Assembly (NCBI GenBank): GCA_947624805.1
Contig: CANQLW010000001.1
Location: 37,073 to 101,072 of the forward strand
Source: an uncultured Clostridia bacterium
Lineage (GTDB): Bacteria > Bacillota > Clostridia > Christensenellales > Borkfalkiaceae
Reading direction: 5' to 3'
DNA length: 64,000 nucleotides
Within the stretch, counting starts at the first letter, position 1; each line of letters opens with the position of its first letter. This document shows, piece by piece, positions 26,803-44,233 of this stretch. A program made the position numbers and the translations under genes. The notes beneath the pieces are model-generated. The model saw only the letters and a list, made by a program, of their open reading frames with translations. It did no database searches and was not told the DNA's origin.

Positions 26803-26833
26803 TTGTTGTTATCCTCCGTAATGTTTTATTTTT

Positions 26834-27307: not shown

Positions 27308-27322
27308 GTCTGTTTTCCTCCT

Positions 27323-27802
27323 TTAACTCTTCATGTAATTTACGATCGCGTCGTTGTCCATATCGCTCTTGGCAACCATCAGGAACTTATCGTTGAACCT
27401 GTCGATCGTCACGCAGGAGCAGAGCAGGATATACTCAAAGACAGGCTTGCCGATCAGGCTGTCGCGATAGCTCGAGGTCAGCCGGAAGAAGATCACACCG
27501 TTGATATAGTCGAAGTCGAAGCTGCCGTCCAAAATGCTGTGGTTGGCGCAGCTCGCGGCGACGGCCATCGCCGTACGCTTCTCTTCGGGAATCACAAACG
27601 GCATCGGGGAAAGCAAGAGGATGAGTTCGCGCTCGGCATCCACTTCGATCCTGATGTCCATCGGAAGATCATCCCCCCGTGCGCCGCAACTGATCACGAG
27701 GTTCTCTTCGTCTTTGCTGTAATGCCACTTCTTTTCGTCGAGCATTTCGCACAAAGACTTGAATGTGGCTTGCGCCAGCTTCATGTTTTTTTCGTCCGCC
27801 AT
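27323..27802 (-). CDS. YbjN-like (T3SS-chaperone-fold) protein, paralog 1
   Basis: 159 aa, paralogous to 26834-27307. RBS aaggaga lies upstream. Confidence 0.55.
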   Translation of the reverse strand: MADEKNMKLAQATFKSLCEMLDEKKWHYSKDEENLVISCGARGDDLPMDIRIEVDAERELILLLSPMPFVIPEEKRTAMAVAASCANHSILDGSFDFDYINGVIFFRLTSSYRDSLIGKPVFEYILLCSCVTIDRFNDKFLMVAKSDMDNDAIVNYMKS

Positions 27803-27823
27803 AATTCTCTCCTTGATTCTTTA

Positions 27824-29809: not shown

Positions 29810-29839
29810 GCGATATCCTTATCCGTTATTGATTTTTTG

Positions 29840-31945
29840 TCAGTGATTGGTAAATACGATGAGCTTGTCGTGCTTTTCGAGCTTGACGGGGATCTCCGTC
29901 TGGTCCCCCTCGAAGAGGGTGATCCTGCCGCCCGGTTTGACATAGCCGAGCACGACCGTGGGATTTTGCTTTTCCTTGGGGATCCCCCCGCCGACGGAGG
30001 CCTCCCAGACGCCGCGGATGAGCTCCGCCGCCGTGCACGCGGGCGGGATCTCGTCGAAGAAGGCGGACACCTTTTTCGTATAGATCTCCTTGCTGTCGTA
30101 CTCCTCCGTCTCCCCCGTGTCATAGGTCAGAATGTCCGTATAGAAGTCAAAGATCGCTTCCTTCTCGCCGATCTGTGTGATCATCTTGGAGATGTAACGG
30201 TTGCTGATAACGACGTTGTCCACGCTGTAACGGGAGACGATGTCGTGATGCTTGGGGTCGAGGATCTCGACGATGACGTCCACGCTCTCGGGGTCGAAGG
30301 CGGGATCCGCCTCCTTTTTCGCCGCGATGATGTCCTGTACATAGACAAGATTGGCGAGCGGGCGGGCGTCGATCTCCTCATTGAGGGCGGTATCGTCGGA
30401 GAGGATGAGAATACTCGTATCCTCTTTGTTGGCGTTGATGATCTCCTCGATCGAGGCGCAGATGAGGTCCTTATCGTAGACGCTCGCCGCGATCGTCCGC
30501 TTGACGAAGGGGTATTCCTCATAGCCGTTCATCTTTTCGAGGCTCTCGAGATCGTCGATCACGGCGATACGGAGGATCTCCTCCCCCTTCCTGTGCCACT
30601 CGTTCCAGAAGGCGCGGAAGCCCTCCATGATCTCGCGGATCTTGCTGTTGTGCCCGAGGATGACGACGTTTTTGCACTCGATCCAGTAGTTCCTGTTGAG
30701 GCGGATGTCGGGTGCCGCGGCCTTGTCGCCGCCGCCGCGGGCGATGTCGCGCTCCGAGGCCGCGGAATAGAACATATACCCGTTGCCCTTCTCCGCCATC
30801 GACGTGAGCGGGATCGCACACCTGTGCGAGGAGAGATAGTCCGTGACGAAAGCCGTCTCGTCCTCCACCGTCCTCTTCTCGGCGAAGAAGGTCGCACCCT
30901 TGTTGGAAAAGAGCTCCTTATAGACGAGGTTGAGCTCGGGCATGAGCGAGAACTGGGAGAGAAGCTGGCCGAGGATCTGGTTGATGCGTACGGGGATGAT
31001 GTTGCACTTCCCGTCCACCTGTTTGTATTTGATGATCTTGTTGACGAGCTCGAGCGTCCAGTCGTCCGAGATCTCGACGACGATCTTCTGCCCGTCCTCG
31101 GAGTAATCCGCCGAGGTGATGTCCGAGACGAGCATGAGCGTTTTGATCGTCTGTGCGTTGCCCTTGCTCTTGTCGCGGATCTTTTCACGGGTATCGTACT
31201 TGCAGACGGCGTTGTTGACGTCGTCCCCGAGGATGACGATGGATTCCGCCTTCTCGATCGCGATGTCGCGGAGGCGTTTGAGGGAGAACTCGTCCCCTTC
31301 CCGGATGATGACGGTGAGATTGCTCCTCCTGCGGCGGAAGAGATAGACAAGCCGCCCGAAGACACGATGCTTTTCGAGGCATTCCCGCAGCACCGCCTTG
31401 TTCTCGACGTGAAGGGTATCTGAGATCCGCTCGTCGATCTCCCGCTGGATCTCCTTCTTTCTGCCGCTCACGAGCACGACAACATACCGCTTTTTACGGC
31501 AATACAAAAGATCGTTGATGATCTCCGACGCCCGCGTGTTCCAGTTGAGGATGACGAAGTGGTGGGAGATCCTGAGTCTGCGGGAATCGGAATTGGAATC
31601 GGCGATAAAGCCCGAGATGTAGTTCGTGACATAACCGATGACGGCGCCTGTGAACGAGACCATGCCGATGAGGATGATGACGAGGCAGACGATGGCGACC
31701 GCGACACCCGACTCCCCGATGTCCGCGATGACGAACTGCACGCAGCCCGCGTCGAGGATCATCGTGATCGTATAAAACGCCGCCTCGAAGAAACCCATCT
31801 TCTCCGTCCCGTCCAGCGAGAAGGAGGAAATGATGAGCGCCGCGACGACCATAAAGACCACGTTGAAAAGAAGGATCGCCAGCAGGATGATCCTCCCCGG
31901 GTATTTCGCGAGCTGTATGCTGAACCATTCACGCAGTTTTTTCAT
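29840..31945 (-). CDS. CASTOR/POLLUX-like cation channel homolog (TM pore module + two RCK/TrkA-N-like domains)
   Basis: The start was reassigned to the ATG at 31945 (MKKLREWF...). TM helices are followed by the pore-like segment FFEAAFYTITMILDAGCVQF (compare the ADxGNH filter of CASTOR/DMI1). The RCK-like starts are HHFVILNWNTRASEIINDL and KNVVILGHNSKIREIMEGF. Confidence 0.7.
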   Translation of the reverse strand: MKKLREWFSIQLAKYPGRIILLAILLFNVVFMVVAALIISSFSLDGTEKMGFFEAAFYTITMILDAGCVQFVIADIGESGVAVAIVCLVIILIGMVSFTGAVIGYVTNYISGFIADSNSDSRRLRISHHFVILNWNTRASEIINDLLYCRKKRYVVVLVSGRKKEIQREIDERISDTLHVENKAVLRECLEKHRVFGRLVYLFRRRRSNLTVIIREGDEFSLKRLRDIAIEKAESIVILGDDVNNAVCKYDTREKIRDKSKGNAQTIKTLMLVSDITSADYSEDGQKIVVEISDDWTLELVNKIIKYKQVDGKCNIIPVRINQILGQLLSQFSLMPELNLVYKELFSNKGATFFAEKRTVEDETAFVTDYLSSHRCAIPLTSMAEKGNGYMFYSAASERDIARGGGDKAAAPDIRLNRNYWIECKNVVILGHNSKIREIMEGFRAFWNEWHRKGEEILRIAVIDDLESLEKMNGYEEYPFVKRTIAASVYDKDLICASIEEIINANKEDTSILILSDDTALNEEIDARPLANLVYVQDIIAAKKEADPAFDPESVDVIVEILDPKHHDIVSRYSVDNVVISNRYISKMITQIGEKEAIFDFYTDILTYDTGETEEYDSKEIYTKKVSAFFDEIPPACTAAELIRGVWEASVGGGIPKEKQNPTVVLGYVKPGGRITLFEGDQTEIPVKLEKHDKLIVFTNH

Positions 31946-31954
31946 TGTTATTTT

Positions 31955-31983
31955 ATTATAACAAAATATATCAGGTACGTCAA
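31955..31983 (-). promoter_or_regulatory. Candidate sigma-A promoter giving a (near-)leaderless channel mRNA
   Basis: Read on the minus strand: ttgacg (31978-31983), a 17-nt spacer, tataat (31955-31960), then only 9 nt (aaaataaca) to the ATG at 31945. There is no SD sequence. Confidence 0.45.
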
Positions 31984-32138
31984 CACTTTGACAAAAAATC
32001 ATAAAAAGATTTTTATTTTTCACAGATTCGGGATCAAATCCGACAAAATTTTCCTCCCGCGGCACAAGAACAGGGGCGGCGCCTGGGGGGAAGAAGGGGG
32101 GACGGAGAGCATTCCCTTGACTTTCTTTCCGAATTTTC

Positions 32139-32167
32139 TTGACAAAACCGTATTCTCATGGTATGAT
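32139..32167 (+). promoter_or_regulatory. Candidate extended -10 promoter of apgM
   Basis: ttgaca (32139-32144), a 17-nt spacer, then tgg+tatgat (32159-32167). A structured leader (ccgcccc ttcg gggcgg) precedes RBS aaaggag. Confidence 0.45.
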
Positions 32168-32245
32168 AAACACCGAAAAAAACCGATCGCGGGTCCGCCC
32201 CTTCGGGGCGGCTGCAATCAGGATCGGCAAAGGAGTTTTATCGCT

Positions 32246-33499
32246 ATGAACAAACAGATGTCCATCATTTCCAAGATCTCTAAGAAAAACGACAACAAGA
32301 TCTTATTCCTCGTCGCAGACGGGCTGGGCGGAATGTGCCATCCCGACTATGACAACAAGTCCGAGCTCGAATATGCAAACCTTCCCGCCCTCGACAGATT
32401 CGCCGCAGACGTCCGTACGGACACGGGTCTCATCTATCCCGTCATCCGCGGCGTCATCCCGGGGAGCGGCTCGGGGCACTTCGGGCTGTTCGGCTACGAT
32501 CCCACCGAGGAGGAATTCATGGTCGGGCGCGGCGCCCTCGAGGCAGCCGATCTCGAACCCGGCCTCGTCCGCCGCTCGGACATCGTCGCCCGCTTCAACT
32601 TCTGCTCCCTCGGCAAGGACGGAAAGGTCGCAGACCGCCGCGCGGGGCGCATTGCCGACGGGCATGAGTTCGCCGACATCATCAATGAAAAGGTCAAGGT
32701 CGAGGGCTACGACTTCACCGTCATCGCGACGAAGGGGTACCGCGGCGTCCTCGTCATCCGTGACAGCGAGGGAAGACTGAGCGACGAGATCACCGATACC
32801 GATCCCCAGTCCGAAGGGCTCCCCCTTCTCACCGTCACGCCGAGACAGAACGCCAAAAACGTCGAAGGGGCACAGCGCACGGCGGATTTCGTCAACGAAT
32901 TCAACAGACAGGTCACCGAGGTGCTCAAGGACCAGCCGCTCGTCAACGGGCTCGTGATCCGCGGCTTCTCCAAATTCCCCACCCTGCCGAAGTTCGACGA
33001 CATCTATTCCACCCATTCGCTCGCCATCGCCTCCTTCCCCTTTTACCGCGGGATCGCATATCTTCTCGGCATGGACATCGCGCACGGCTGTCTCACCTTC
33101 GAGGACCAGATCGAGGCGCTCAAACAGAACTATGACAAGTACGATTTCTTCTATCTGCACTATAAGGATTCCGATTGCAGGGGCGAGGACAGGAATTTCC
33201 CCGGCAAGGTGCAGGCGCTCGAATATCTCGACTCTAAGCTCGATGAGATCCTCTCACTCGGCTTCGACACCGTCGTGATCACGGGCGACCACTCCACCCC
33301 TTCCTACATGGGCGCCCACAGCCATCACGCAGTGCCCCTCGCGATCCGCAGCAAGCGCAACCGCGGCGTGGACGAGAGCAAGAAGTTCGATGAGAGAGAG
33401 TTCTCCCACGGCTATCTCGGCACTGTCTACGGCAAGGACCTCATGATGATGGTGCTCGCAGCGGCCGGGCGGCTCGCAAAATCCGAAGACTTCATCTGA
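32246..33499 (+). CDS. apgM: Cofactor-independent phosphoglycerate mutase, archaeal/ApgM type (alkaline-phosphatase superfamily)
   Basis: The start was reassigned to the ATG at 32246 (MNKQMSIISK), after aaaggag. ILFLVADGLGG, PGSGSGHFGLFGYDP and VVITGDHSTPSYMGAHSHHAVPL fit the ApgM pattern. Length is 418 codons including the stop (417 aa). Confidence 0.75.
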   Translation: MNKQMSIISKISKKNDNKILFLVADGLGGMCHPDYDNKSELEYANLPALDRFAADVRTDTGLIYPVIRGVIPGSGSGHFGLFGYDPTEEEFMVGRGALEAADLEPGLVRRSDIVARFNFCSLGKDGKVADRRAGRIADGHEFADIINEKVKVEGYDFTVIATKGYRGVLVIRDSEGRLSDEITDTDPQSEGLPLLTVTPRQNAKNVEGAQRTADFVNEFNRQVTEVLKDQPLVNGLVIRGFSKFPTLPKFDDIYSTHSLAIASFPFYRGIAYLLGMDIAHGCLTFEDQIEALKQNYDKYDFFYLHYKDSDCRGEDRNFPGKVQALEYLDSKLDEILSLGFDTVVITGDHSTPSYMGAHSHHAVPLAIRSKRNRGVDESKKFDEREFSHGYLGTVYGKDLMMMVLAAAGRLAKSEDFI

Positions 33500-33510
33500 C
33501 GGGACACACG

Positions 33511-33548
33511 CAGCCGACGCCCTTTCCGACGTCGGCTGTATCTTTTTA
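33511..33548 (+). terminator. Rho-independent terminator after apgM
   Basis: cagccgacg (33511-33519) pairs with cgtcggctg (33530-33538), followed by tatcttttta. Confidence 0.6.
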
Positions 33549-33580
33549 TTATGCGGAATTTTTCCGCGGGAGACAAGGTC

Positions 33581-35002
33581 ATGAAAAAAACGCTCTCGGT
33601 CATCATAGGGCTTGCCGTCAACTTCATCCCCGCCGCGATCGTCGCAGGTCTGACGTGGTATTGGAACGTCCTGCCTTGGTATGCCGTCCTCATCCTCGTT
33701 CTTCTCGTCCTCGCCGTCGAGGGTCTCATCTTCTTTTTGACGGGATTCCGCAGGATCGGGATCACCGATTCGAGCAAGCGCCGCGGGGATTCCCAAAAAT
33801 TCGCCGAAATTTTGCAGGACGCGAGATCTTCCGTCGACTTCCTCGTCTCGTGGGGCGGGTCCCTTCCCGGGCTCTCCCGCGATTACAGACAGCAGTTCGA
33901 GGAAATGGTGTCGCGCGGGGTCAAGATCCGCATCCTCATGCTCAAACCCAACTCCTTCGGCGTGTATGAGCGTCTGCTCAGATCGGCAAAATGGACCCGC
34001 CGTTCCCACATCAACCAGATCGACGCATTCATCGAGTTCAAGGAAAACCGTATCACGGAGAACCACTGGGACGATTTCAGGATCGCCTTCTATGAAGAGG
34101 AGGCGTGCTGGTCGATGGCGATCGTCGACGGCCGTTTTGCCTCGGTCGGCTTCTACGGCGAAGGGGTCGGGCGGGATCATCCCTCCCTCGAACTTGCCAA
34201 GGGCAAAAACCCCAATCTCTTCGACTTCTTCCGTGAGACATACGAGACGATGTGGGAGCGCTGTTCGACCAAGAACACCATCCATACTTATACGAATTTC
34301 AGCCAGCTTCTCGAGGCGGACGAGCGGCGCAAAAGGCAGGGGCTCGTGTTCTGCTTCATCGGTCCGTGCGGCGCGGGGAAGACTTCGATCGTCAACAAAC
34401 TCCTCGATCGCCACAACTTCAGGCAGATCAAAACGACGACGACCAGACGCCAGCGCGACGCCTCGGAGGCGGTCTCGCAGTACAATTTCGTCACCTCGGA
34501 AGAATTCGACAGCATGATCGCCGAGGGCGGCTATGTCACGGCACGCTACTGCGACAACCGCTATGCGATCAGCCGCGACGACATCGCACAGTGGCGCAAC
34601 GGCGAGGAGGATTTCATCATGGACTCCATCTTCGACGCGGATGACCTTCGAGAGGCCTTCGGGAACCGTCTCGTGCTCATCTATGTCACGGCGTCCACAA
34701 AGCAGATCATGATCGACCGTGTCCGCGGCCGTTTCAAGAACTCCGTCTCCCTCCTGCAGCTGCGCAAAGAGCACGCGGACGTGATCGCGGCGAGCGCTCC
34801 CCTTTGCGATTACATCCTCATCACGGACGGAGAGCTCGACGATACCCTCGATGCAGCGGAACGTATCATCAAGGCGGCCAAAAAGAGCTATGCGGAATAC
34901 GGCCGCGTGCGTGCCTATGACAGCGACGCGGAGGAGTTCCTCGCCGACCGTAAACTCGACGGAGGGCAACTGCCCCGCGTCAACGAAAAAGTTATTCTGT
35001 AA
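33581..35002 (+). CDS. Membrane-anchored protein: 2 TM + unknown middle domain + C-terminal guanylate-kinase-like P-loop domain (paralog A)
   Basis: The start is probably the ATG at 33581 (MKKTLSVIIG); the track start at 33551 lies inside the terminator T-tract. The GK-like region is FCFIGPCGAGKTS...TTTTRRQRDASEAVSQYNFVTSEEFDSMIAEGGYVTARYCDNRYAIS. Confidence 0.7.
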   Translation: MKKTLSVIIGLAVNFIPAAIVAGLTWYWNVLPWYAVLILVLLVLAVEGLIFFLTGFRRIGITDSSKRRGDSQKFAEILQDARSSVDFLVSWGGSLPGLSRDYRQQFEEMVSRGVKIRILMLKPNSFGVYERLLRSAKWTRRSHINQIDAFIEFKENRITENHWDDFRIAFYEEEACWSMAIVDGRFASVGFYGEGVGRDHPSLELAKGKNPNLFDFFRETYETMWERCSTKNTIHTYTNFSQLLEADERRKRQGLVFCFIGPCGAGKTSIVNKLLDRHNFRQIKTTTTRRQRDASEAVSQYNFVTSEEFDSMIAEGGYVTARYCDNRYAISRDDIAQWRNGEEDFIMDSIFDADDLREAFGNRLVLIYVTASTKQIMIDRVRGRFKNSVSLLQLRKEHADVIAASAPLCDYILITDGELDDTLDAAERIIKAAKKSYAEYGRVRAYDSDAEEFLADRKLDGGQLPRVNEKVIL

Positions 35003-35014
35003 GGAGGCAGGGCG

Positions 35015-36418
35015 ATGAATAAATTTTACGGCATCCTCTTCGACATCCTCATCGGGCTCGCGGCATCCGCGCTCGCGTCCGTGCTCCTTCTCATCTGCAA
35101 CGTCGTCGACTGGAGATATCTCCTCATGGCGCTCATCCCCGTCTTCTGTATCGTCTCCTCTTCCCTCTATCTGATGCGGCGGTACCGTAAGATCGGGCTG
35201 TGCGGGTTCCGCAAACGCACGAGCGCAGTCAAGCAGCTCCTCGGCGCCGTCAAAAAGACAAGATCGGCGGCGGATATCCTTCTCGGGCGGGAAGTGTATG
35301 CCTTCTTCTCCGAAGAAGGGATCTCCCTCCTGCTCACAAAGGCAAAGACGGCGAAGCTGAACCTTCTGCTCCCCGCCCCCTATTCCGAGGCGACGCAGGC
35401 ATACAACGACGCCGCGGGACAGGACGTCTCCCCCGTCGATCCCGACCGCCTTCTCGGGTTTCTCAAACGGCTGTGTGCAGAGGACGGGCAGCTTCCGAAA
35501 GGGCTGCGCATCGGGCTGTACGCCTCCCCCATCCACGCGAGCTTTGTGCTCTCGGACAGCAGAAAGGGCTGTGTCGCCCTCCGCGCCGATCCCTTCGGGG
35601 CAAAGTGGCCCGTCATCTCCATGCGTACGATCGACGGCATCCAGACATACTGCTCCGCCTTCCGCGACTACTTCAACATCACATGGCGGGAGTGCCGCAG
35701 ATTTTACGGCATGAGCGACGTCAACCGTATCATCCTCGAGAACGACAGGCGGCAGGGGCACGGCATCGTGATCGCCGTCACGGGCCCCTCGGGCGCGGGC
35801 AAGACGACCGTCGTCTCCGCCCTTATCGCAGACCGCAAGTGCGAGGTCGAGACGATCCCGACTTATACGACCCGCCCGCCCCGCCCGAATACAGACGAAT
35901 CCAAACAATACAAATTTGTCTCGCGGGAAGAATATGAGAGCATGGAACACGAGCACCGTTTCATGGTGAGCGCGGAATTCTGCGGCAACCGCTACGGTGT
36001 GACGAACACCGATGCCTATGCCGTCCTGAGCTCGAGAAAGAGCCTGCTCCTCGACACGATCGCCAACCCCGCAGACCTCAAGAGTATCTTCGGCAACCGT
36101 GTGATGATCATCTATCTCACCGCGCCGACCAACGAAGAGGCGGTACGCCGTCTCAAACAGCGGGGCGTCATCGGCACTGAAGAGCTCAGACGCCGCGTCG
36201 AATACGGCAAACAGCAGGCACAGAATGCACAGCACTGCGACTATCTCGTCGTGAACGAGACGGTCGAAGAGACGGTAGCTGCCGTCAAACGCATCATCCG
36301 CGAGGCAAAACTCGAATATCTCGAGACGGGGGACGTCGTCGCCGAGACCATTCTCGAAGATACTTCCTTCGTCGCGATCAGCTGCGGAAAACTGCCGCAG
36401 GACGAGGTCACGATATGA
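35015..36418 (+). CDS. Membrane-anchored protein: 2 TM + unknown middle domain + C-terminal guanylate-kinase-like domain (paralog B)
   Basis: RBS aaggagg lies upstream. The GK-like region is IAVTGPSGAGKTT...TYTTRPPRPNTDESKQYKFVSREEYESMEHEHRFMVSAEFCGNRYGV. The architecture matches the preceding gene. Confidence 0.7.
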   Translation: MNKFYGILFDILIGLAASALASVLLLICNVVDWRYLLMALIPVFCIVSSSLYLMRRYRKIGLCGFRKRTSAVKQLLGAVKKTRSAADILLGREVYAFFSEEGISLLLTKAKTAKLNLLLPAPYSEATQAYNDAAGQDVSPVDPDRLLGFLKRLCAEDGQLPKGLRIGLYASPIHASFVLSDSRKGCVALRADPFGAKWPVISMRTIDGIQTYCSAFRDYFNITWRECRRFYGMSDVNRIILENDRRQGHGIVIAVTGPSGAGKTTVVSALIADRKCEVETIPTYTTRPPRPNTDESKQYKFVSREEYESMEHEHRFMVSAEFCGNRYGVTNTDAYAVLSSRKSLLLDTIANPADLKSIFGNRVMIIYLTAPTNEEAVRRLKQRGVIGTEELRRRVEYGKQQAQNAQHCDYLVVNETVEETVAAVKRIIREAKLEYLETGDVVAETILEDTSFVAISCGKLPQDEVTI

Positions 36419-37056
36419 ACAAGATCATCTGTATCGATCTCATGGAGACCTTGATCGGGCGGGACGATGCCGCGTTCTGCGCCCGTCTCTCCGAACTCCT
36501 CTCCCTCCCCCCGTCACGGGACGCCTTTGTCACAAAGACGGTCCGCCAGCGCTATCTCGAATACTCCATGGGCAACTACGGAAGCGACGGGGAATACCTC
36601 TCCGTGCTCCTGCTCTCCCTCGCGGGGCGCCCCGCCTCCAAGGAAGAGATACAGGCCGCCGCCGCCGATCTTCTCGGGCACTACCGTGCCATCGAGGGAA
36701 GCATCGGCTTTCTGAAAACATTGAAGGAGCTCGACTGCCGCGTCTGTATCGCCTCGAATTTCGTCACGTCGTGGGCAGTTGCCATTTTGGACCGTCTCGG
36801 CATGACCCCCTATACGGACGATGTTTTCATCTCCTCGGATCTTCGGGTCCGCAAACCCGCGCCCGCCTTCTTCCTGCATATCGCCGATACCCTCGGCGTC
36901 CCCCCGCAGGAGGTGACTTTCATCGGCAATTCCTATGTCAACGACTATCTCGGCGCAAAGAACGTCGGCATGGAAGCCTATCTTCTCAAAGAAAACAATA
37001 CGGAGGGCGAGGGCCTCTGCTACGATGAAATCGCCTCGCTCCTGAAAAAAGGATGA
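36415..37056 (+). CDS. HAD-superfamily hydrolase with atypical motif I
   Basis: Motif I reads IICIDLMETL, with Met at the D+2 position. Motif II is CIASNF, motif III is VRKPAPAFF and motif IV is FIGNSYVNDYLGA. A 4-nt overlap links it to the preceding gene. Confidence 0.7.
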   Translation: MNKIICIDLMETLIGRDDAAFCARLSELLSLPPSRDAFVTKTVRQRYLEYSMGNYGSDGEYLSVLLLSLAGRPASKEEIQAAAADLLGHYRAIEGSIGFLKTLKELDCRVCIASNFVTSWAVAILDRLGMTPYTDDVFISSDLRVRKPAPAFFLHIADTLGVPPQEVTFIGNSYVNDYLGAKNVGMEAYLLKENNTEGEGLCYDEIASLLKKG

Positions 37057-37060
37057 GACC

Positions 37061-38083
37061 ATGATCAAACTCGGCATCGGAACGACGGGCAAATGCAACA
37101 TGAACTGCGAGCACTGCTACTCGCGGCGGTACGACGGCAAGACGCTGTCGCTCGAAGACATCCATGCGATCGCAGAGGCGATCGGGATCGACTCGGTGAA
37201 CTTCGGCACGGGGGAAAACATCCTCAACCCCGATTTCCCCGCAATCGTGGACGATCTCTATGAACGGGGGATCCCCCTCTCGCTGACGACGAACGGGTTC
37301 TCGATCATGAAGATGTCCGACGGGCAGATCCTCAAATTCCACGACATCGATTTCTCCCTCGAATTTCCCACGCGGGAGCTTCAGAACAGTTACCGCGGGC
37401 ACAATTCATGGGAGATGGTCACGGCGGGCATGGCGCGGTGCAAGACGCTCGGCGTCCCCTTCTCCGTCGCGACCGTCCTCATGAACGCCAACGCCCCCTA
37501 TCTCCCCGACTTCTACGGGCTGATCGGGCAGTACGGCTGTTTTCTGCGGATCAACGTCATCAAGTTCAATGAAAGGACACATTCCCCCGACGACGAACAG
37601 GCGCTCACCTATGAGACCTTCTGGGAGAGCATCCGAAAGATTCTGGAACGGTTTTCCCTCATCTCCTGCTCGGAGCCCATCCTCCGCGCCGCGCTCGGGC
37701 TCGGGGACGACTGCGGCATCCCCTGCGGAAGGGCCTCCATCCGTATCCAGCCCGACAGGAGCATCCTGCCCTGCGTCTATTGGGGGGATTCTTCGCTCAC
37801 GGTCGACGATCTCATACGGCAGGGAGAGGACGTCCTTTCGTCCCCCGAATTTGCCGCCGCCTCCCTGCTCCCCGAAGTCTGCCGCGGGTGTGCCTATGTA
37901 CTGCCCTGCGCGGGCGGCTGTGCGAGCCGCCGCAAACTCTCGAAGGCGGGACTCGCGGCGCCCGATCCCTACTGTCCCCTCGTGCGCGGGGAGCAATTCC
38001 CCCGCCTTTCCTACCGTCCGAACGGGGAGGGCGTCGATCTCATCCACTCGAAATATCTTTGCACGATCATACTCGGCATTTAA
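37061..38083 (+). CDS. Radical SAM enzyme with a C-terminal SPASM/twitch-like Cys cluster
   Basis: The CxxxCxxC motif is GKCNMNCEHCYS. The C-terminal cysteines are CGRASIRIQPDRSILPC...CRGCAYVLPCAGGCASRR...YCP. Confidence 0.8.
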   Translation: MIKLGIGTTGKCNMNCEHCYSRRYDGKTLSLEDIHAIAEAIGIDSVNFGTGENILNPDFPAIVDDLYERGIPLSLTTNGFSIMKMSDGQILKFHDIDFSLEFPTRELQNSYRGHNSWEMVTAGMARCKTLGVPFSVATVLMNANAPYLPDFYGLIGQYGCFLRINVIKFNERTHSPDDEQALTYETFWESIRKILERFSLISCSEPILRAALGLGDDCGIPCGRASIRIQPDRSILPCVYWGDSSLTVDDLIRQGEDVLSSPEFAAASLLPEVCRGCAYVLPCAGGCASRRKLSKAGLAAPDPYCPLVRGEQFPRLSYRPNGEGVDLIHSKYLCTIILGI

Positions 38084-38092
38084 GGAGGGAGC

Positions 38093-39418
38093 ATGGCTCT
38101 TTTTTGGTCGGAGGGCCTCCTCGTGCGCTCTGCACGCGGCAGGACCTGCTTTTTCAACAGACTGACGGCGGACTATACCGTCGCGGACGGCATTTTCACC
38201 CCCGCGGCAGGCTCCGCGCTCACAAAAGAGGAAGAGGATGCGCTCTCCCCCGCCCTTTTCGCCGCACTTGAGAAGGCGGGGCTCCTTTGCCCCTCGCCCT
38301 CGGGACCTTCCGCGGCGCCCGAAGACGCGCCCTGCCTCGAGCACATCAACTTCCTCGTGACGGACGGCTGCAACCTCGGCTGTACCTATTGCCAGATCGA
38401 AAAAAATCTCACGGCGGGCAGGGTACAGGATCTCTCCGTCTCCGACGCAAAGGCGGCCCTCGACAGGCTGAAAGCGTTTGTCCCCGAAGATGCCCGCGTC
38501 ACCGTCAATCTCACGGGCGGCGAACCGCTCGTCAACTTTGAGACGGTAAACTTTCTCCTCGGCTATGCGAGCGAGTGCTTCGGCTCCCTGCGCTTTTCCC
38601 TCTTCACGAACGGAACCCTGCTCGACAGCCGCATCGCCCGTATTCTCAAGGAGTACAACGTCCTCACGATCGTCTCGCTCGACGGTCCCGAAGAGATCCA
38701 CGACAAACGCCGCAGAGATCTCGGCGGGCAGGGATCGTATGCACGCAGTCTCGAAGGGTACAGGACCGCTCAGGCGGAAGGATGCAGCTGTGCGCTCTCC
38801 TCCGTCGCCTGTGAGGAGACCCTCTCGGATATCGATACCTTCGCCGATTGGGCGATCTCTCTCCGCCCTCTGAGCCTCGGATATAACTATCCCCATCTCC
38901 TTCTCGGACACCCCGGGGGGACGTTCGAAGTCTCCCGATACACCGCCGCCATCCTCGCCCTGCACCGCAAAATGCAGGGGCACGGGATCTATCTCGAAAA
39001 CTACGAACGCTTCCGCCGTGCCGTCGCGGCAAAACGGGTACGGCGCAGGGAATGTCAGGCGTGCGGCAGGGGGATCACCGTCCGCGCGGACGGAAAGTTC
39101 GGGCCCTGCAAGTCCCTTCTCGTCTCGGACAGGATCGTGCTCTGCCCCGAGACATTCGACTACTCCTCCGACGAGACCGTACAGAGCTGGGCGGCACGGA
39201 CCCCCCTCTCCAAAGCGGAATGCAGAAAATGCGATGCGCTCGCGATCTGCGGCGGGGGCTGTGCCTATGACGCCTATATTCTTCACGGCGATCCGATCGC
39301 ATTCGACGAGCGGCTCTGTCCCCACTTCCGCGCGATCATGGATGAGATCTTATACGACCTCTGCATCCGCGGGGGGACGGACGGCGGCGATCCCCTCTTC
39401 GGGACCGTCGGTCACTGA
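38093..39418 (+). CDS. Radical SAM/SPASM enzyme with an approx. 90-aa N-terminal extension (possible RRE/PqqD-like)
   Basis: TDGCNLGCTYCQ, NLTGGEPL and SLDGPEEIHDKRR are present. The SPASM region is CQACGRGITVRADGKFGPC...CRKCDALAICGGGCAYDA. Confidence 0.8.
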   Translation: MALFWSEGLLVRSARGRTCFFNRLTADYTVADGIFTPAAGSALTKEEEDALSPALFAALEKAGLLCPSPSGPSAAPEDAPCLEHINFLVTDGCNLGCTYCQIEKNLTAGRVQDLSVSDAKAALDRLKAFVPEDARVTVNLTGGEPLVNFETVNFLLGYASECFGSLRFSLFTNGTLLDSRIARILKEYNVLTIVSLDGPEEIHDKRRRDLGGQGSYARSLEGYRTAQAEGCSCALSSVACEETLSDIDTFADWAISLRPLSLGYNYPHLLLGHPGGTFEVSRYTAAILALHRKMQGHGIYLENYERFRRAVAAKRVRRRECQACGRGITVRADGKFGPCKSLLVSDRIVLCPETFDYSSDETVQSWAARTPLSKAECRKCDALAICGGGCAYDAYILHGDPIAFDERLCPHFRAIMDEILYDLCIRGGTDGGDPLFGTVGH

Positions 39419-39432
39419 ACGGGGAGGAGTAC

Positions 39433-40731
39433 ATGAGACCCATCAACGAAAAACTGCTGCAGATCCCGAAGATCTACACCAAAAAGATCACGGAGGCGAT
39501 CAAGGAAAACAGGGACGCCGTCAATCTCGCAAGGGGGGATTCCGAATTCATCACCCCAGCGCCCGTGACGGACTATCTCAAACATATCATCGACGACCCC
39601 GGCCCGCACGGGGGATTCAACGACCCCGTCGGGAAATGGACACACTATGAAAAAGAGGCGGGGTCCGAGCATCTCAGGCGTTCCGTCTGTGAAAAATATG
39701 CACGGGAGAGCGGGCTTTCTTTCACCAAGGAGCAAGTCCTCGTGACCCACGGGGGCATGAACGCGATCTTCTACGCCTTCTTGTCCCTTCTGACGGAGGG
39801 GGACGAGATCCTCGTCTTCGACCCCGCCTATATCGCCTATGAGCCCATCGGCGCCTTCCTGCTCCAAGGGGTCACCGTAAAGCGCTTCCCCCTCTCGGAG
39901 AAAGAGGGCTACGAGATCGATCTGAAAAAACTCGGCGAGGCGGTGACGCCCCATACCAAGGCGATTGTGTTCACTTCTCCCTACAATCCCTGCGGGAAGG
40001 TGTATTCATATGAGGCGGTCGGGGCGCTCTCCCGCTTCTGCCGTGAACGGGAGATCTATCTCATCCATGACGAAAACCACGAAAAGGAGATGTACGACGG
40101 CAACCGTCACTATCCCGCGGCGATGTTCGATCCCGATCTCTCCCATACGGTCCTGCTCAACAGTATGTCCCGCCTCGGCATGGGGGGATGGCGGGTCGGG
40201 TGGATGATCGCAAACCCCCGTATCATCCGTGCCGCGACGAACGTGAATGCCTATGTCAATATGACCTGCAACACCTTTGTGCAGGAATGCGCCGCCTTTG
40301 CGCTCGACAACTACGGCACGCTCGGCTATGACGGCATCTTCGCCCACTACGGAGAAAAGCGGGACAAGCTCTATGCCTTTCTCACGGGGATCCGCGGCAT
40401 CACCTGTTTCCGCCCGCAGGGAACCTGCTATCTCTTTCCCGATGTCGGGGAATTCTTTGCTCTGCACCGCGATGAGATCTTCTCTGTAATCTTCAAAAGC
40501 GATTGGTTCCTCGCGCTCGGCGAACAGGAAAGGGAACGGGAGAGGGAACAGGCAGGATCGAGCGTCTCCTATGCAGTCTATCTCTACTTTCTCCTCCGCT
40601 TCAAAGTCGGCGTGCTCCCCGGGTGCTGTTACGGCCCCGCGAGCGACAGCCATATCCGCCTGTCCGTCTCCGTCAAAGAGCAGGCGATCGACGAGGCGAT
40701 CCGCCGCCTCTCCCCTCTGCGGGAACTTTGA
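39433..40731 (+). CDS. Class I/II aminotransferase-fold protein lacking the PLP-binding lysine
   Basis: SPYNPCGKV, LIHDENHEKEMY and HIRLSVS fit the fold. The SxSK motif reads NSMSRLGMGGWRVGW (codon CGC at 40171-40173), so it has Arg where the Schiff-base Lys is expected. Confidence 0.8.
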   Translation: MRPINEKLLQIPKIYTKKITEAIKENRDAVNLARGDSEFITPAPVTDYLKHIIDDPGPHGGFNDPVGKWTHYEKEAGSEHLRRSVCEKYARESGLSFTKEQVLVTHGGMNAIFYAFLSLLTEGDEILVFDPAYIAYEPIGAFLLQGVTVKRFPLSEKEGYEIDLKKLGEAVTPHTKAIVFTSPYNPCGKVYSYEAVGALSRFCREREIYLIHDENHEKEMYDGNRHYPAAMFDPDLSHTVLLNSMSRLGMGGWRVGWMIANPRIIRAATNVNAYVNMTCNTFVQECAAFALDNYGTLGYDGIFAHYGEKRDKLYAFLTGIRGITCFRPQGTCYLFPDVGEFFALHRDEIFSVIFKSDWFLALGEQEREREREQAGSSVSYAVYLYFLLRFKVGVLPGCCYGPASDSHIRLSVSVKEQAIDEAIRRLSPLREL

Positions 40732-40740
40732 GGAGACGCC

Positions 40741-41688
40741 ATGCAGATCACTTTAACGGATATCGGCGATCCCCGCTTTTCCAAGGCCCTGAAAAAGGCC
40801 TTCCCCGATGCAGATGTCTTCATACAGGACGGTCCCTTGGGAGAGAGGTTTGCGGAGTCGGACATCGTCATTACGGGCAGAAATTTCAGGTTCGGCGCTG
40901 AGGCGGTAATGTCGCTCAGGCATTGCAGGGCGATCATCCGTAACGGGATCGGATATAACAATATCGATACGGCTGCGGCGCGGAGGGCGGGCATCGACGT
41001 CTTCAATATGCAAGATTATTGCATCGACGACGTCGCCGAACATACCATGGCGATGCTGCTCGCTTATTCGAGACGGCTCATGGACCATGCACGGGCGGAG
41101 TCCCTCCTCACGGCGGCGTGGGGGAGCCCGTCCGATCGGATGTTCCGTCTGAAAGGGAAGAAGCTCGGCGTCGTCGGCTTAGGCAACATCGGGAGCGCCG
41201 TGGCGGCACGGGCGGCGGCGTTCGGGATGCAGATCGGATGTTTGGATCCCGCCCTCTCCCGTGCTCCCTGCCCCCTTTTTCATGATCTGAAGGAGCTGGC
41301 GGCGTGGGCGGACATTCTCACCGTCCATGTTCCCCTCACCCCCGCGACAAAGGGATTTTTATGCGCGGATGTGTTTGAAAAAAGCCGCGGGATCGTATTG
41401 ATCAATACCTCGCGCGGCGGAGTCGTCGTCTATGAAGATGTCCTGCGCTGCATGAAAGAGGGCAGGATCGGGGCGTTTTTGACGGATGTGCTCGACCGTG
41501 AACCGCCCGACGGGAACCCCGTCATCCATGAACTTCTCGACCCCGACAGCCCTCTTCGGGACAGGATCCTGATCACCCCGCACGTCGCTTTCTCCTCTTT
41601 TGAGAGTGCAGAGGACCTCACGAAGAGCATCCTCGCGCTCCTCTCCGATCTCCTTACAGGCCGCACCCCCCTTCGCCCCGTCAACTGA
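40741..41688 (+). CDS. D-isomer-specific 2-hydroxyacid dehydrogenase (NAD-binding)
   Basis: GVVGLGNIGSAVA (GxGxxG), INTSRGGVV, TDVLDREP and ITPHVAFSS supply the R/E/H catalytic set. Confidence 0.85.
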   Translation: MQITLTDIGDPRFSKALKKAFPDADVFIQDGPLGERFAESDIVITGRNFRFGAEAVMSLRHCRAIIRNGIGYNNIDTAAARRAGIDVFNMQDYCIDDVAEHTMAMLLAYSRRLMDHARAESLLTAAWGSPSDRMFRLKGKKLGVVGLGNIGSAVAARAAAFGMQIGCLDPALSRAPCPLFHDLKELAAWADILTVHVPLTPATKGFLCADVFEKSRGIVLINTSRGGVVVYEDVLRCMKEGRIGAFLTDVLDREPPDGNPVIHELLDPDSPLRDRILITPHVAFSSFESAEDLTKSILALLSDLLTGRTPLRPVN

Positions 41689-41737
41689 CCAACCCTCCCC
41701 CCTTGCCCACCCCTCCATACAAAACAACGAAAAATAC

Positions 41738-41766
41738 GGCGCGGGCGGCAAATTGCCGCCCGCGCC
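41738..41766. terminator. Bidirectional terminator hairpin between convergent genes
   Basis: Perfect 13-bp stem ggcgcgggcggca / tgccgcccgcgcc with loop aat. It lies between the stops at 41688 (+) and 41778 (-). Confidence 0.6.
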
Positions 41767-41777
41767 GTGCATTTGGT

Positions 41778-43271
41778 TCAAAGAAACGCTTTCAGCGCTT
41801 CATACACTTTTACCATTGCATAGGTATCGAGTTCGCAATACTTGAGAAGAGCCGCTTCGGCGCGTTTTCTCTCCTCCTCTCCCATCCCCGCAAGGCGCGG
41901 GAAGAGATCCATCGCCTCGCTCCCGTTGTGCACTTCCTCAAGATTATGATAATCGAGCGAGGGGTCGTCGGGATAGAGCGCGGGGAGCACGCTCTTGATG
42001 GAAAAGGAACCCCCCATCGCCCCCGTATAGTAATATCCTTTACGGAAGGGGTCGATGAGATCGGCGATATGGTCACAGACGGACAAAAGATGCGGGGCGA
42101 GATCGGGAAAAGCGTCCGCGAGCTCCCTGATACGTCCGCATTCAAAACTCTTGTTGTAGGCGAGTACGCAGACGTCTTCGGGGATATCCGCGACGAGCCG
42201 CTCGGCAAGAGCACGGCGGGGATCCTCCTCGGGACGGCCGAGGAATTCACGATGCTCGACCGGAGCGTCCTCTTTCAGGATGTGCAAAGAGTACTGCACG
42301 GGGATCTGCTGGTAAGGACGGGTCCCGTCGTAAGGCGGAATGGGGAGCTGTATTGTCTCAAAATCGAGGAAATACAGCGGATATGTGAGCGTTTTGAGGA
42401 ATTCTGCGATATGTTCACGGTCGATGTGGGCATCCTGCCGCCCGAGGGAAAATTCGATCTGGCGGAGACAGATCTCCCCGAGCTTTGTCCCGCTTCCGAG
42501 GGCATCGCCGAAGGAACGCACGCCGCTTTTCAGGAGCGCGACCTTTTTCTTGAAGGACAGCCCGTAGAGGTCAAAGACGGAGGGCGAGGGCAACTCCCGC
42601 GTGCAATAGGAGAAAAAGGCGCAAGCATAGGGCTCATTGCATTGTTCCCCGACGCCGATCCCGGGCTCCTCCGCCGAGCGCATCACCTTCTTTGCCTCTC
42701 CGAGATACTCCGCGGCGACCGCCCGCTCCGCAAAAGCGGCTTCCGTCACATCGGTGACGCGGAAGAGCCTTGAAAGGTCGAGCTCCCCCTCGCGGACATA
42801 GCTGTTGTCGAGGGTGACGAGGCAGACCCGCTTGACATTCACCCCGCATCTTCCGAGGACATATGTCTGATAACCCGTATCGGTGAGATAGACGGCGTGA
42901 TCGGGCGACGTACTGCTCTTGACCTCGAAGACGTCGTAGCCGTCGCCATTCTTTTTGAGAATGTCCACGGCGCAATACAGCCCGTCCGCGTCGAATGCGG
43001 CCTCGCAGATGACCTCTCTCCCCTCGGCGAGATACTGTTTTGTGAGCGCTTTCATGCGGCCGAGATCGAGGGAACCGTCAGACCGATAAGATGTGACCTC
43101 AACATAATCGCCGAAGAGTCCCATCGCGAGGTCCCCCACTTCGTTCCCCGCCGTGAACCTCGCCTCACGGGCGGCGTCCTCGGTATAGACCTCGGGTTTG
43201 TATTTTTTGAGCCACGGGATCTTGGGGCATTGCCTGAAATCGCAATATTTTGATTTGCTGAAATAAAACAC
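41778..43271 (-). CDS. DUF2779-like protein (predicted nuclease-fold protein)
   Basis: 497 aa. The N-terminus FYFSKSKYCDFRQCPKIPWLKKY is characteristic of DUF2779 as I recall it. It uses a GTG start with RBS aaggagg. Confidence 0.6.
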   Translation of the reverse strand: MFYFSKSKYCDFRQCPKIPWLKKYKPEVYTEDAAREARFTAGNEVGDLAMGLFGDYVEVTSYRSDGSLDLGRMKALTKQYLAEGREVICEAAFDADGLYCAVDILKKNGDGYDVFEVKSSTSPDHAVYLTDTGYQTYVLGRCGVNVKRVCLVTLDNSYVREGELDLSRLFRVTDVTEAAFAERAVAAEYLGEAKKVMRSAEEPGIGVGEQCNEPYACAFFSYCTRELPSPSVFDLYGLSFKKKVALLKSGVRSFGDALGSGTKLGEICLRQIEFSLGRQDAHIDREHIAEFLKTLTYPLYFLDFETIQLPIPPYDGTRPYQQIPVQYSLHILKEDAPVEHREFLGRPEEDPRRALAERLVADIPEDVCVLAYNKSFECGRIRELADAFPDLAPHLLSVCDHIADLIDPFRKGYYYTGAMGGSFSIKSVLPALYPDDPSLDYHNLEEVHNGSEAMDLFPRLAGMGEEERKRAEAALLKYCELDTYAMVKVYEALKAFL

Positions 43272-43345
43272 GGCTCCTCCTTTTGCAGATACCGCCGTCG
43301 GGCTTTCACACCGACCATTCGTTTGCGCTGCGGCACGGCAAAATC

Positions 43346-43374
43346 ATTATACCACGTTTTTTCCCCTTTTTCAA
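43346..43374 (-). promoter_or_regulatory. Candidate extended -10 promoter
   Basis: Read on the minus strand: ttgaaa (43369-43374), a 17-nt spacer, then tgg+tataat (43346-43354). Confidence 0.45.
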
Positions 43375-43387
43375 GCACTCCCCGAAA

Positions 43388-44233
43388 TCATCCCGAGACG
43401 AGGGTTTTCAGAGGGTTTGCATATTGCCCCGCGGCGCAGGCGGTGAGGAGTTCCTCCTCGCTCAGCTCTGCATAGAACGTCCCCGCTTCGAAGAGGAGCA
43501 AGGTAAGATACCTGTCCTCCCGCAGATATCGGATCGCGTCCTGCACGGTCGCATCCGCGGAGAGGGCGATACGGATCTCCTCCACCCCGCGTGAAAAAGA
43601 TCTCTCCCGTGAAAAGGGCATACGTCTGTAACCCCCGCCGCCGAATGCGCCCGCGGCGAGAAGGAGCGCAAAAAAGAGCGCCGAAAAAGCGGGCTCCGAG
43701 AAGCAACTCCAGATAAAGAGCCCGAGGAGAACGGCGGCGATCGCAAGGGTCAGGGCACGGCAGAGAAGCATCGCCCGCCGCTCCCCGAGCGGGGAGAGCA
43801 GGATCCTGAGGATGCGTCCGCCGTCGAGCGGCCATGCGGGGAGCAGGTTCACGAGGCATAAAGACACCGAGACATACGCCGCCACGTCCGTGTAGGCATA
43901 CGTCTCGGGAAAGAGCCACCACAGGGAGATAAAGAGGAGCGCGGTCAGGGCATTGGCGAGCGGTCCCGCGAGGCAGACCGCGATCTCCTGCTTGGGCGGG
44001 ATCCCGCCGAGATCCCCCGAAATGACGGCGCCGTACGGCATCAGCACGACCCTGTCGAGCACGAAACCGTAACGTCTCGCCGCAAAGGCATGAGCGCACT
44101 CGTGCTCGAGCGCCGCAAGTACGGCGGAGAGGAAGACGAGCAGTTTCCCCGTGAATGCCGAGAGGATCCCCGCTGCAAAAAAGAGCGGGTGGATCCGCAG
44201 CTTCTCAGCTCCACGCAAGCGTGTTTTCCGCAA
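43388..44233 (-). CDS. spoIVFB: Site-2 (M50) intramembrane metalloprotease, SpoIVFB-like
   Basis: HECAH (HExxH) and NLLPAWPLDGGRI (NxxPxxxLDG) are present. The N-terminus KLRIHPLFFAAGILSAFTGKL resembles that of B. subtilis SpoIVFB. The C-terminal region is CBS-like. Confidence 0.8.
   Translation of the reverse strand: MRKTRLRGAEKLRIHPLFFAAGILSAFTGKLLVFLSAVLAALEHECAHAFAARRYGFVLDRVVLMPYGAVISGDLGGIPPKQEIAVCLAGPLANALTALLFISLWWLFPETYAYTDVAAYVSVSLCLVNLLPAWPLDGGRILRILLSPLGERRAMLLCRALTLAIAAVLLGLFIWSCFSEPAFSALFFALLLAAGAFGGGGYRRMPFSRERSFSRGVEEIRIALSADATVQDAIRYLREDRYLTLLLFEAGTFYAELSEEELLTACAAGQYANPLKTLVSG

Follow-up and report, generated by a model that had tools for sequence, protein, structure and literature searches.

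A 64,000-nucleotide stretch of a contig from an uncultured Clostridia bacterium of the Borkfalkiaceae (CANQLW010000001.1; the whole stretch is called the window here) carries on its forward strand a compact operon in which two radical S-adenosylmethionine (radical-SAM) enzymes are encoded next to an aminotransferase-fold protein. The block was defined by open reading frame (ORF) listing combined with a codon-bias filter. It begins with an apgM-like gene (positions 32246 to 33499, 417 amino acids [aa]), followed by two guanylate kinase-like genes, GK-like 1 (33581 to 35002, 473 aa) and GK-like 2 (35015 to 36418, 467 aa), and by a haloacid dehalogenase (HAD)-like gene (36415 to 37056, 213 aa). 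Two radical-SAM/SPASM genes, rSAM-A (37061 to 38083, 340 aa) and rSAM-B (38093 to 39418, 441 aa), precede the AT-like gene (39433 to 40731), whose product has the aspartate aminotransferase (AspAT) fold, and the last gene encodes a D-isomer-specific 2-hydroxyacid dehydrogenase of the PGDH/GhrB-like type (40741 to 41688, 315 aa). Pfam and NCBIfam agree with the domain calls of the first-pass annotation (Guanylate_kin twice, HAD superfamily, Radical_SAM with SPASM twice, Aminotran_1_2 [PF00155], and 2-Hacid_dh), and every NCBIfam equivalog match of the block proteins lies under its cutoff. All start codons of the block are preceded at 5 to 9 nt by a GGAG-type ribosome binding site. From apgM onward, the spacers measure 81, 12, −4, 4, 9, 14, and 9 nt, the last six being the −4 to 14 nt gaps that the first-pass annotation gave for 33581 to 41688. 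That interval, however, contains seven genes and not the eight claimed; an eight-gene unit is obtained only with apgM counted in, which had been put outside the operon.

We count apgM as the eighth gene because it is always linked to the others and owns the sole promoter-like site. It stands 5′ of the block in 4 of the 4 complete related loci (L002, L004, L005, and L006), and the sigma-70-like site at 32139 to 32167 upstream of it (TTGACA-17-TATGAT with TG, a consensus match only) is the single such site on the forward strand within 32000 to 43500; an operon start downstream of apgM, as first proposed, is thus not upheld. The terminator-like element reported behind apgM is present, in the form of an intercistronic hairpin with a 10-bp stem (33510 to 33539, z = −2.5) and a T-run that extends to 33549, which could be terminator- or attenuator-like. 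Hairpins occupy the equivalent apgM-GK spacer position in L002 (2881 to 2971), in L004 (2222 to 2329), and in the window (33497 to 33583), and their sequences differ; they may mark a conserved site of attenuation or mRNA processing through which apgM and the downstream genes receive separate expression levels. At the other end, a GC-rich hairpin with a 15- to 16-bp stem (41735 to 41769), readable on both strands, closes the operon together with a convergent DUF2779 gene and corresponds to the strong bidirectional terminator noted earlier. Scanned against Rfam over its full length, the window returned zero families, and we therefore assign no riboswitch or leader to the operon.

The same gene order is found in about 12 independent metagenomic contigs, at 33 to 66% protein identity and with flanks that differ on both sides, so the adjacency is not due to chance, the outcome that would have refuted the observation according to the first-pass annotation. 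The succession of apgM, one or two GK genes, HAD, rSAM-A, rSAM-B, AT-like, and dehydrogenase is repeated in L002, L004, and L005/L006, and a metagenome scan added partial cluster copies in L009, L013, and L014. Where there is a single GK gene, it is the GK-like 1 type of paralogue that is retained. The family is sparse, with only 12 full-length homologues of the GK-like protein in a search of 5.8 billion protein clusters. The cluster, the rSAM-A/rSAM-B/AT-like trio, and the lysine-to-arginine aminotransferase clade described below are not described in Pfam, NCBIfam, PADLOC, PHROGs, the PDB, or the phage and plasmid collections, and a full-text literature search found no description of them either. 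PADLOC gave weak generic matches on the window and no system. The view that the gene combination belongs to no characterized pathway is therefore sustained, as no NCBIfam equivalog, PADLOC system, phage or plasmid family member, or publication matches it. The operon is real, rare, and conserved.

A lysine-less aminotransferase fold and two SPASM enzymes

The AT-like protein matches PF00155 at 149.8 bits. Its Schiff-base position, which carries the lysine of the usual S-x-[SA]-K motif in aminotransferases, is occupied by R247 (codon 40171 to 40173, context NSMSRLGMGGWRVGW), aligned with K234 of T. thermophilus AspAT, so that the fold is indeed lysine-less, as had been noticed from the sequence. 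Arginine is present at this position in all 25 family members and also in the copies from the loci, the distant forms L019 and P0196 among them, whereas the next-best homologues have lysine. The PLP-binding N185, D213, and R254 and the α-carboxylate-binding R409 (equivalent to AspAT N194, D222, R266, and R386) are invariant in the 25 members; HDENHEKE stands in place of the D-E-x-Y motif, and there is an insertion near the C terminus. Two cysteines, C279 and C332, are family specific and invariant in the clade, and they align to AspAT positions that we take to line the active site. In the search of 5.8 billion clusters, scores drop from 419 bits (316 for a partial member) to 173 at the clade boundary, and a profile run against 1.84 billion representatives at 50% identity retrieved only three members (709, 466, and 369 bits), with ordinary aminotransferases next, at 269. 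As judged from these scores, the clade is discrete and sharply bounded. The AT-like alignment found zero relatives among viral contigs (IMG/VR), and tblastn against phage and plasmid records yielded generic aminotransferases alone, at less than 30% identity.

ColD and E1 (CDP-6-deoxy-L-threo-D-glycero-4-hexulose-3-dehydrase) are lysine-less enzymes of dideoxy-sugar biosynthesis that depend on pyridoxamine 5′-phosphate (PMP); they keep the cofactor noncovalently, and E1 works with iron-sulfur or radical chemistry. The AT-like protein resembles them in being a fold-type I protein whose Schiff-base lysine is naturally replaced. The replacement is histidine there and arginine here, and their subfamily is DegT/DnrJ/EryC1; their substrates are NDP-4-keto-sugars, whereas the AT-like protein keeps the α-carboxylate arginine typical of enzymes acting on amino or keto acids. 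By analogy with ColD and E1, the AT-like protein probably holds PMP or pyridoxal 5′-phosphate (PLP) noncovalently. A more specific proposal, which we put forward tentatively and regard as doubtful, is that it serves either as a scaffold offering a noncovalent PLP-substrate aldimine to the two radical-SAM enzymes acting in trans or as the carrier of a new protein-derived cofactor, made by radical-SAM conversion of its active-site cysteines.

Both radical-SAM proteins have the CxxxCxxC motif and a complete set of SPASM cysteines, in line with the first-pass description. In rSAM-A, the motif consists of C12, C16, and C19, the SPASM cysteines are C203, C222, C238, C274, C277, C283, C287, and C305, and the TIGR04085 score is 29.4 bits against a cutoff of 27. 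The C-terminal tail, HSxYLCTxIF, is invariant within this large family, which has at least 340 relatives at an E value below 1e-20. The AlphaFold model of rSAM-A (pLDDT 93) has BlsE as its top Foldseek match by E value (2e-12); by TM score, anSME is the closest structural neighbor (0.71), followed by BlsE, SuiB, viperin, PqqE, MoaA, and DesII. Since so many different radical-SAM enzymes follow anSME, we regard the structural match as generic. The best curated match is MftC, and among solved structures it is PqqE.

In rSAM-B, the radical-SAM motif is formed by C93, C97, and C100, and the cysteines of the SPASM region are C231, C321, C339, C377, C380, C386, C390, and C409. The protein ends in an invariant SVGH and begins with a variable domain of about 85 aa, in which no PqqD or RiPP recognition element (RRE) match to Pfam was found in nine orthologues at E values up to 10. 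Its best curated matches are QhpD (123.8 bits), PapB, and other peptide maturases; the nearest solved relatives are CteB, cyclopropylglycine synthase (8vpo), and anSME, and BlsE is a weak sequence match. No precursor peptide gene was recognized, as every small ORF conserved over 11 loci sits inside the large genes, and gaps of at most 14 nt leave no space for such a gene in the window cluster.

Relatives of rSAM-A also occur apart from the trio. In L017 (9001 to 12885), the rSAM-A homologue P0137 (40% identical) is encoded with an SAM methyltransferase (TehB/NodS-like), an ArsP_1 permease, and an AIRS-family (SelD/ThiL-like) protein, and these four genes may form a metalloid (As/Se/Te) organification cluster; the homologue is without the RCCLKC tail of ArsL. 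An ArsS/ArsL lead for rSAM-A itself, under which the enzyme would adenosylate its substrate, was dropped; ArsL belongs to the RCCLKC-tail subfamily, whereas the rSAM-A family ends in HSxYLCTxIF. In L020 (8027 to 15353) and L021, an rSAM-A relative (44% identical) is one of four radical-SAM genes, without an AT-like gene, that are accompanied by genes for thymidylate kinase, methyltransferase, NTP_transf_5, and nitroreductase, with alginate lyase genes adjoining. The recurrent pairing of rSAM-A with nucleoside monophosphate (NMP) kinases may be meaningful.

Membrane-anchored kinase-like proteins and accessory enzymes

GK-like 1 and GK-like 2 share an architecture of two transmembrane segments, a middle domain, and a P-loop domain with the guanylate kinase fold. 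In GK-like 1, the transmembrane segments span aa 7 to 25 and 35 to 53 (up to about 54 over both proteins), the middle domain, of phospholipase D (PLD) fold, spans about 62 to 250, and the guanylate kinase fold spans about 253 to 434 and is followed by a conserved C-terminal tail. Within the block, paired N-terminal hydrophobic segments are limited to these two proteins, each of which also has a Guanylate_kin domain, so their description as membrane anchored and guanylate kinase-like agrees with our data. As there are positive residues past the second transmembrane segment, the soluble part should face the cytoplasm.

The P-loops read GPCGAGKTS and, in GK-like 2, GPSGAGKTT. The PF00625 scores (55.7 for GK-like 1 and 95.8 for GK-like 2) exceed the gathering score of 25.2; the TIGR03263 equivalog cutoff of 160.45 bits is missed by both (72.5 and 118.6). 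The phosphate-binding Arg/Tyr motifs, T-T-R-x-x-R and Q-Y-x-F, show no variation in 12 sequences, and the domains align at 1e-22 to 1e-20 to guanylate kinases of the PDB (10sr and 3lnc). In this alignment, Val, Val/Ile, and Ile stand where guanylate kinases have the Glu, Ser/Thr, and Asp that contact guanine; we take these guanine-reading residues to be Glu69, Ser80, and Asp100 of the yeast enzyme, with roles assigned from the yeast and Escherichia coli enzymes. Because guanine contacts have given way to hydrophobic residues, the two proteins are judged not to be guanylate kinases. Compared with guanylate kinase and PhnN (PF00625), they have the fold, the P-loop, and the TTRxxR…Y residues in common, whereas the fusion to two transmembrane helices and a dead PLD-fold domain and the hydrophobic guanine contacts set them apart.

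The PLD assignment comes from an AlphaFold 2 model of the middle domain (about 185 residues, ten sequences, pLDDT 81.5), for which Foldseek returned the TrmBL2 effector domain, vaccinia F13, FAM83, Zucchini, Nuc, and PssA at E values of 1e-6 to 1e-4 and TM scores of about 0.5. The HxK(x)4D motif is absent: the Asp alone is invariant (D122, alignment A6), with I/Q at −7 and A/S at −5. As the HxK of the HKD motif is lacking, we describe this PLD fold as dead; the Foldseek check recommended for the middle domains in the first-pass annotation therefore gave an inactive PLD fold. Most simply, the modeled domain would be a ligand-binding or dimerization domain. The GK-like family is known from this cluster only, and the combination of transmembrane segments, dead PLD domain, and guanylate kinase fold without a guanine pocket is a new architecture.

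The remaining three proteins have clear superfamily assignments. The HAD-like protein is atypical, as had been pointed out: motif I (D-L-M-E-T, or D-L-[MI]-[ED]-T in four orthologues) keeps the nucleophile Asp and is without the Asp at +2, the general acid/base. Motifs II to IV are conserved (S114, K147, and G-[ND]-S-x-x-N-D177), and the PF00702 score is 68 bits. The dehydrogenase reaches 134 bits for 2-Hacid_dh_C, over the cutoff of that model, and 160 bits for TIGR01327 against a cutoff of 454, which is below the criterion for D-3-phosphoglycerate dehydrogenase. The apgM-like protein belongs to the cofactor-independent phosphoglycerate mutase family; it shows clear Pfam PhosphMutase and Metalloenzyme domains, aligns to PDB 2zkt at 1e-45, and scores near but under the equivalog cutoffs of the archaeal type, ApgM (NF003160, 415.4 versus 468 bits; TIGR00306, 278.8 versus 320 bits). 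It is 67 to 89% identical across loci, compared with 33 to 66% for the other cluster genes. The gene may have a second role in central metabolism and may differ from the others in expression level.

Sister clusters of the trio and surroundings of the operon

The genes for rSAM-A, rSAM-B, and the AT-like protein lie side by side in all of the 12 loci that offer sufficient sequence (tblastn), and in each of these, rSAM-B lies directly 5′ of the AT-like gene. Two more divergent loci, L012 and L010, keep the trio alone of the cluster, amid different genes. Its partners in L012 are a HIBADH-like dehydrogenase, a Mur ligase, a NUDIX protein, a double D-Ala-D-Ala ligase (Ddl), a B12-radical-SAM protein, and a nucleotidyltransferase (NTP_transferase). 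L010, which corresponds to an Omnitrophota-annotated protein, and L022 have an AsnB-like protein, an aldehyde dehydrogenase, EamA, a third SPASM radical-SAM protein, and a nucleoside phosphorylase (PNP_UDP_1), along with ATP-sulfurylase, APS kinase, HldE-like, SIS, and transketolase genes and, in L010, a class II aldolase. In Wukongibacter sp. M2B1 (L015), the neighbors are NrtR-like, QRPTase_N, class III aminotransferase, PanC-like, SDR, B12-radical-SAM, and thymidylate kinase genes. Transketolase, glycosyltransferases, sulfatase-like proteins, and a CDP-alcohol transferase accompany the trio in L016; NeuB, a CMP-sugar synthetase, transketolase/transaldolase, and a CDP-alcohol transferase do so in L019 (Riflebacteria), and LuxC/LuxE, Ddl, nucleoside diphosphate kinase (NDK), a pyrophosphatase, and an ABC exporter in L023. 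The hosts comprise Clostridia-like organisms, Omnitrophota, Riflebacteria, and Planctomycetota. Across these versions, the partner enzymes point to a small-molecule product, nucleotide linked or phosphorylated, with a unit derived from an amino or keto acid. The nucleotide or sugar-phosphate metabolite suggested in the first-pass annotation accordingly stays plausible, given sister clusters with NMP and nucleoside diphosphate (NDP) kinases, NUDIX proteins, nucleotidyltransferases, nucleoside phosphorylase, and transketolase. If this reading is right, the trio is a portable module without a characterized member, wired to differing downstream chemistries such as ligases, nucleotidyltransferases, and sulfate activation.

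On the 5′ side of the operon, a TerY-P-like set of VWA, PP2C-like, and protein kinase genes lies on the opposite strand at 22282 to 26802. The TerY-P neighbor named in the first-pass annotation is thus present, but it is missing from the flanks of every other cluster copy. The set belongs to a co-directional block on the reverse strand (20326 to 32065), in which an AAA+ ATPase and a membrane protein are added to the TerY-P-like triad. The block encodes three Pfam-less proteins, a Ser/Thr kinase, a 694-aa PP2C-like protein, a VWA protein, two small Pfam-less proteins, a SpoVK/CbbX/EccA-type AAA+ ATPase (661 aa), and a 741-aa protein with multiple transmembrane segments and no family match. On the 3′ side, the reverse-strand gene that converges on the operon and shares its terminator hairpin (41778 to 43271) encodes a 497-aa DUF2779 protein whose N-terminal nuclease region is Cas4-like (PADLOC Cas4, 1.7e-6; UU173-family match). 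The same strand (46312 to 48834) carries a gene for an 840-aa HelD/UvrD-like helicase that has a Sel1 repeat and a short N-terminal match to a zinc-ribbon (seleno)protein model. M50 and M23 peptidases and a NifS-like protein are also encoded on this side. None of the window neighbors on either side accompanies the cluster in the other loci. Farther downstream, 48900 to 56200 is a low-GC island (42 to 47%, versus about 58% elsewhere) with genes for a RadC-like JAB protein (49744 to 50589), a Pfam-less 806-aa protein (51839 to 54259), and a trypsin-like peptidase (54279 to 55148); it looks horizontally acquired and is possibly a defense or mobile island.

Other copies of the cluster adjoin mobile DNA. 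The L002 copy is followed by a phage phosphoesterase (PHROG match) and a head-maturation protease, the L004 copy by a phrog_8308 protein, and the L005 copy by integrase fragments and a YhcG nuclease. Metallophos genes 3′ of the L002 and L004 clusters were considered as further members and set aside as probable prophage genes, the one in L002 being the match to the phage phosphoesterase PHROG. We read the operon as accessory and as often sitting beside prophage DNA; from location only, a defense role of its product is possible.

A candidate pathway and its alternatives

Our preferred interpretation, to which we give about an even chance, is that apgM and the seven genes behind it form an accessory biosynthetic operon for a small phosphorylated metabolite, with the trio as its catalytic heart. 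Gene order and its conservation, the trio, the replaced residues, and the folds of the domains are observed; which substrate enters, how the steps succeed one another, and what is made are inferred as follows. The mutase, PGDH-like dehydrogenase, and HAD genes suggest entry of a C3 phospho-acid; the ApgM-like mutase and the dehydrogenase would take this compound (2- or 3-phosphoglycerate) from glycolysis and oxidize it to an α-keto acid. The lysine-less AT-fold protein would retain the α-keto or amino acid as a noncovalent PMP/PLP adduct, following the logic of ColD and E1, and the two radical-SAM enzymes would carry out the hard steps on this adduct, namely, oxidation driven by H abstraction, formation of a C-C bond, or rearrangement. 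Trimming and rephosphorylation of the product on the inner side of the membrane would then fall to the atypical HAD protein and to the two membrane kinases, whose guanylate kinase fold has a hydrophobic pocket where the guanine pocket would be.

Among the closest known systems are clusters for peptidyl-nucleoside and amino-sugar antibiotics in which radical-SAM enzymes are paired with PLP enzymes, such as those of blasticidin S (BlsE/BlsG/BlsH), desosamine (DesI/DesII), and butirosin (BtrN/BtrS). The common logic is a radical-SAM enzyme together with a PLP/PMP-fold enzyme, kinases, phosphatases, and dehydrogenases, and the sister trio clusters additionally share ATP-grasp ligases and nucleotidyltransferases with them. 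Identities of 15 to 20%, however, indicate no orthology. The PLP-fold partner is of the AspAT type (PF00155) and lysine-less here, whereas theirs is of the DegT type; both radical-SAM enzymes here have a full SPASM domain, and the hosts are uncultured anaerobes rather than actinomycetes.

Several points weigh against a small-molecule pathway of this kind. C3 entry is deduced from family names only, and all equivalog scores are under cutoff. An arginine at the lysine position should cripple ordinary transamination. As apgM is far more conserved than the other genes and has a terminator-like hairpin behind it, it is possibly a housekeeping gene that is merely linked. In addition, the closest solved or curated relatives of rSAM-B (QhpD, PapB, CteB, cyclopropylglycine synthase, and anSME) modify peptides or proteins, and together with the anSME likeness of rSAM-A, this means that the substrate could be a protein or peptide.

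The last point leads to a different division of labor, in which the two radical-SAM enzymes are maturases of the AT-fold protein and, for example, cross-link or oxidize its family-specific active-site cysteines. A cofactor derived from the protein itself would thereby stand in for PLP-lysine chemistry, and the pathway would use the enzyme in this matured form. The strict position of rSAM-B directly 5′ of the AT-like gene in all 12 loci, the invariant lysine-to-arginine change, and the invariant C279 and C332 at presumed active-site-lining positions are in favor of this, as is the lack of a precursor peptide gene. Similarly, the best curated match of rSAM-B, QhpD, cross-links a protein subunit (that of quinohemoprotein amine dehydrogenase), the nearest solved relatives of rSAM-B are also peptide or protein modifiers, and the best structural match of rSAM-A (TM score of 0.71) is anSME, which generates the formylglycine of sulfatases; like these maturases, rSAM-B is strictly linked to one partner protein. 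However, all of these matches are far under the family cutoffs (453 bits for QhpD and 349 for anSME). The cluster also differs from those systems in having no sulfatase or QhpC-like substrate and in always having two different radical-SAM enzymes. Since the contacts to the phosphate and the pyridine ring of PLP are invariant, PLP or PMP is apparently still bound; the Pfam scan of the rSAM-B N-terminal domain gave no recognizable RRE or docking domain, and no precedent is known for such a cofactor in the aminotransferase fold. Overall, we regard maturation of the AT-fold protein as a serious rival, although an unlikely one. If rSAM-B and rSAM-A instead modified a distally encoded precursor peptide, the fragment set free would be tailored or processed by the remaining enzymes, much as in mycofactocin and PQQ biosynthesis, and the operon would be of the ribosomally synthesized and posttranslationally modified peptide (RiPP) type. 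The placement of rSAM-B in a broad peptide-maturase SPASM clade, its extra N-terminal domain of about 85 aa where RREs usually sit, and the MftC and PqqE matches of rSAM-A all fit this scheme. Because no precursor gene is present, whether in the gaps of at most 14 nt or as a small ORF conserved across the 11 loci outside the large genes, the RiPP scheme is nevertheless very improbable, and neither a PqqD/RRE Pfam signal in the nine rSAM-B N-terminal domains nor, in the window version, a peptidase or typical RiPP exporter lends it support.

The surroundings of the operon raise the further question of an anti-phage or intermicrobial conflict function, in which a toxic or chain-terminating nucleotide analogue would be made with viperin-like logic and the kinases would give the di- or triphosphate at the membrane. 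Prophage or integrase DNA adjoins three other copies (L002, L004, and L005), and the window copy lies between the VWA/PP2C/kinase set and the Cas4-like DUF2779 nuclease with the HelD-like helicase. NMP or NDP kinases recur near relatives of rSAM-A (the GK-like proteins in the window, thymidylate kinase in both L015 and L020, and NDK in L023), and the radical-SAM core gives weak PADLOC pVip matches (38 to 46 bits, core only). Prokaryotic viperins likewise have a radical-SAM gene beside an NMP kinase-type gene, sometimes in mobile DNA, but the analogy drawn in the first-pass annotation does not extend to family membership: rSAM-A scores 35.6 bits for NF038283 (viperin) against a cutoff of 180, over residues 9 to 84 only, the N-terminal cluster-binding region, both enzymes have full SPASM domains, and the second radical-SAM and AT-fold proteins are obligatory partners here. 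Moreover, no PADLOC system matches, no phage, plasmid, or IMG/VR record contains the AT-like family, the window neighbors are not conserved with the cluster, and the trio also occurs in glycan- or lipid-type clusters with NeuB, glycosyltransferases, and CDP-alcohol transferases. A conflict function therefore appears rather improbable. Finally, the mutase, PGDH-like dehydrogenase, AT-fold, and HAD families mirror SerA/SerC/SerB logic, and the set could be read as ordinary serine-pathway-like metabolism with unrelated neighbors brought together by chance. This reading is contradicted by the synteny and residue data, in that gene order is kept with both radical-SAM genes in every locus, the AT-fold protein is without the catalytic Lys and the HAD protein without the Asp+2, and we find it scarcely credible; the equivalog scores, all under cutoff, and the extreme rarity of the families (12 GK-like homologues in 5.8 billion clusters, 3 AT-like members in 1.84 billion) are likewise at odds with it.

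A radical-SAM biosynthetic cluster is a familiar kind of system; the trio module and the kinase architecture are not. If the AT-like protein works in either of the two ways proposed above, this would be an undescribed pairing of the aminotransferase fold with radical-SAM chemistry, portable in many orphan clusters of anaerobes. The membrane-anchored kinase raises a testable substrate question. Should the accessory biosynthetic operon that we favor be borne out, solving the trio reaction would define new radical-SAM/PLP-fold enzymology and give functions to a set of dark gene clusters, and it would bring to light a new metabolite, possibly with antibiotic or antiviral activity or as part of the envelope.

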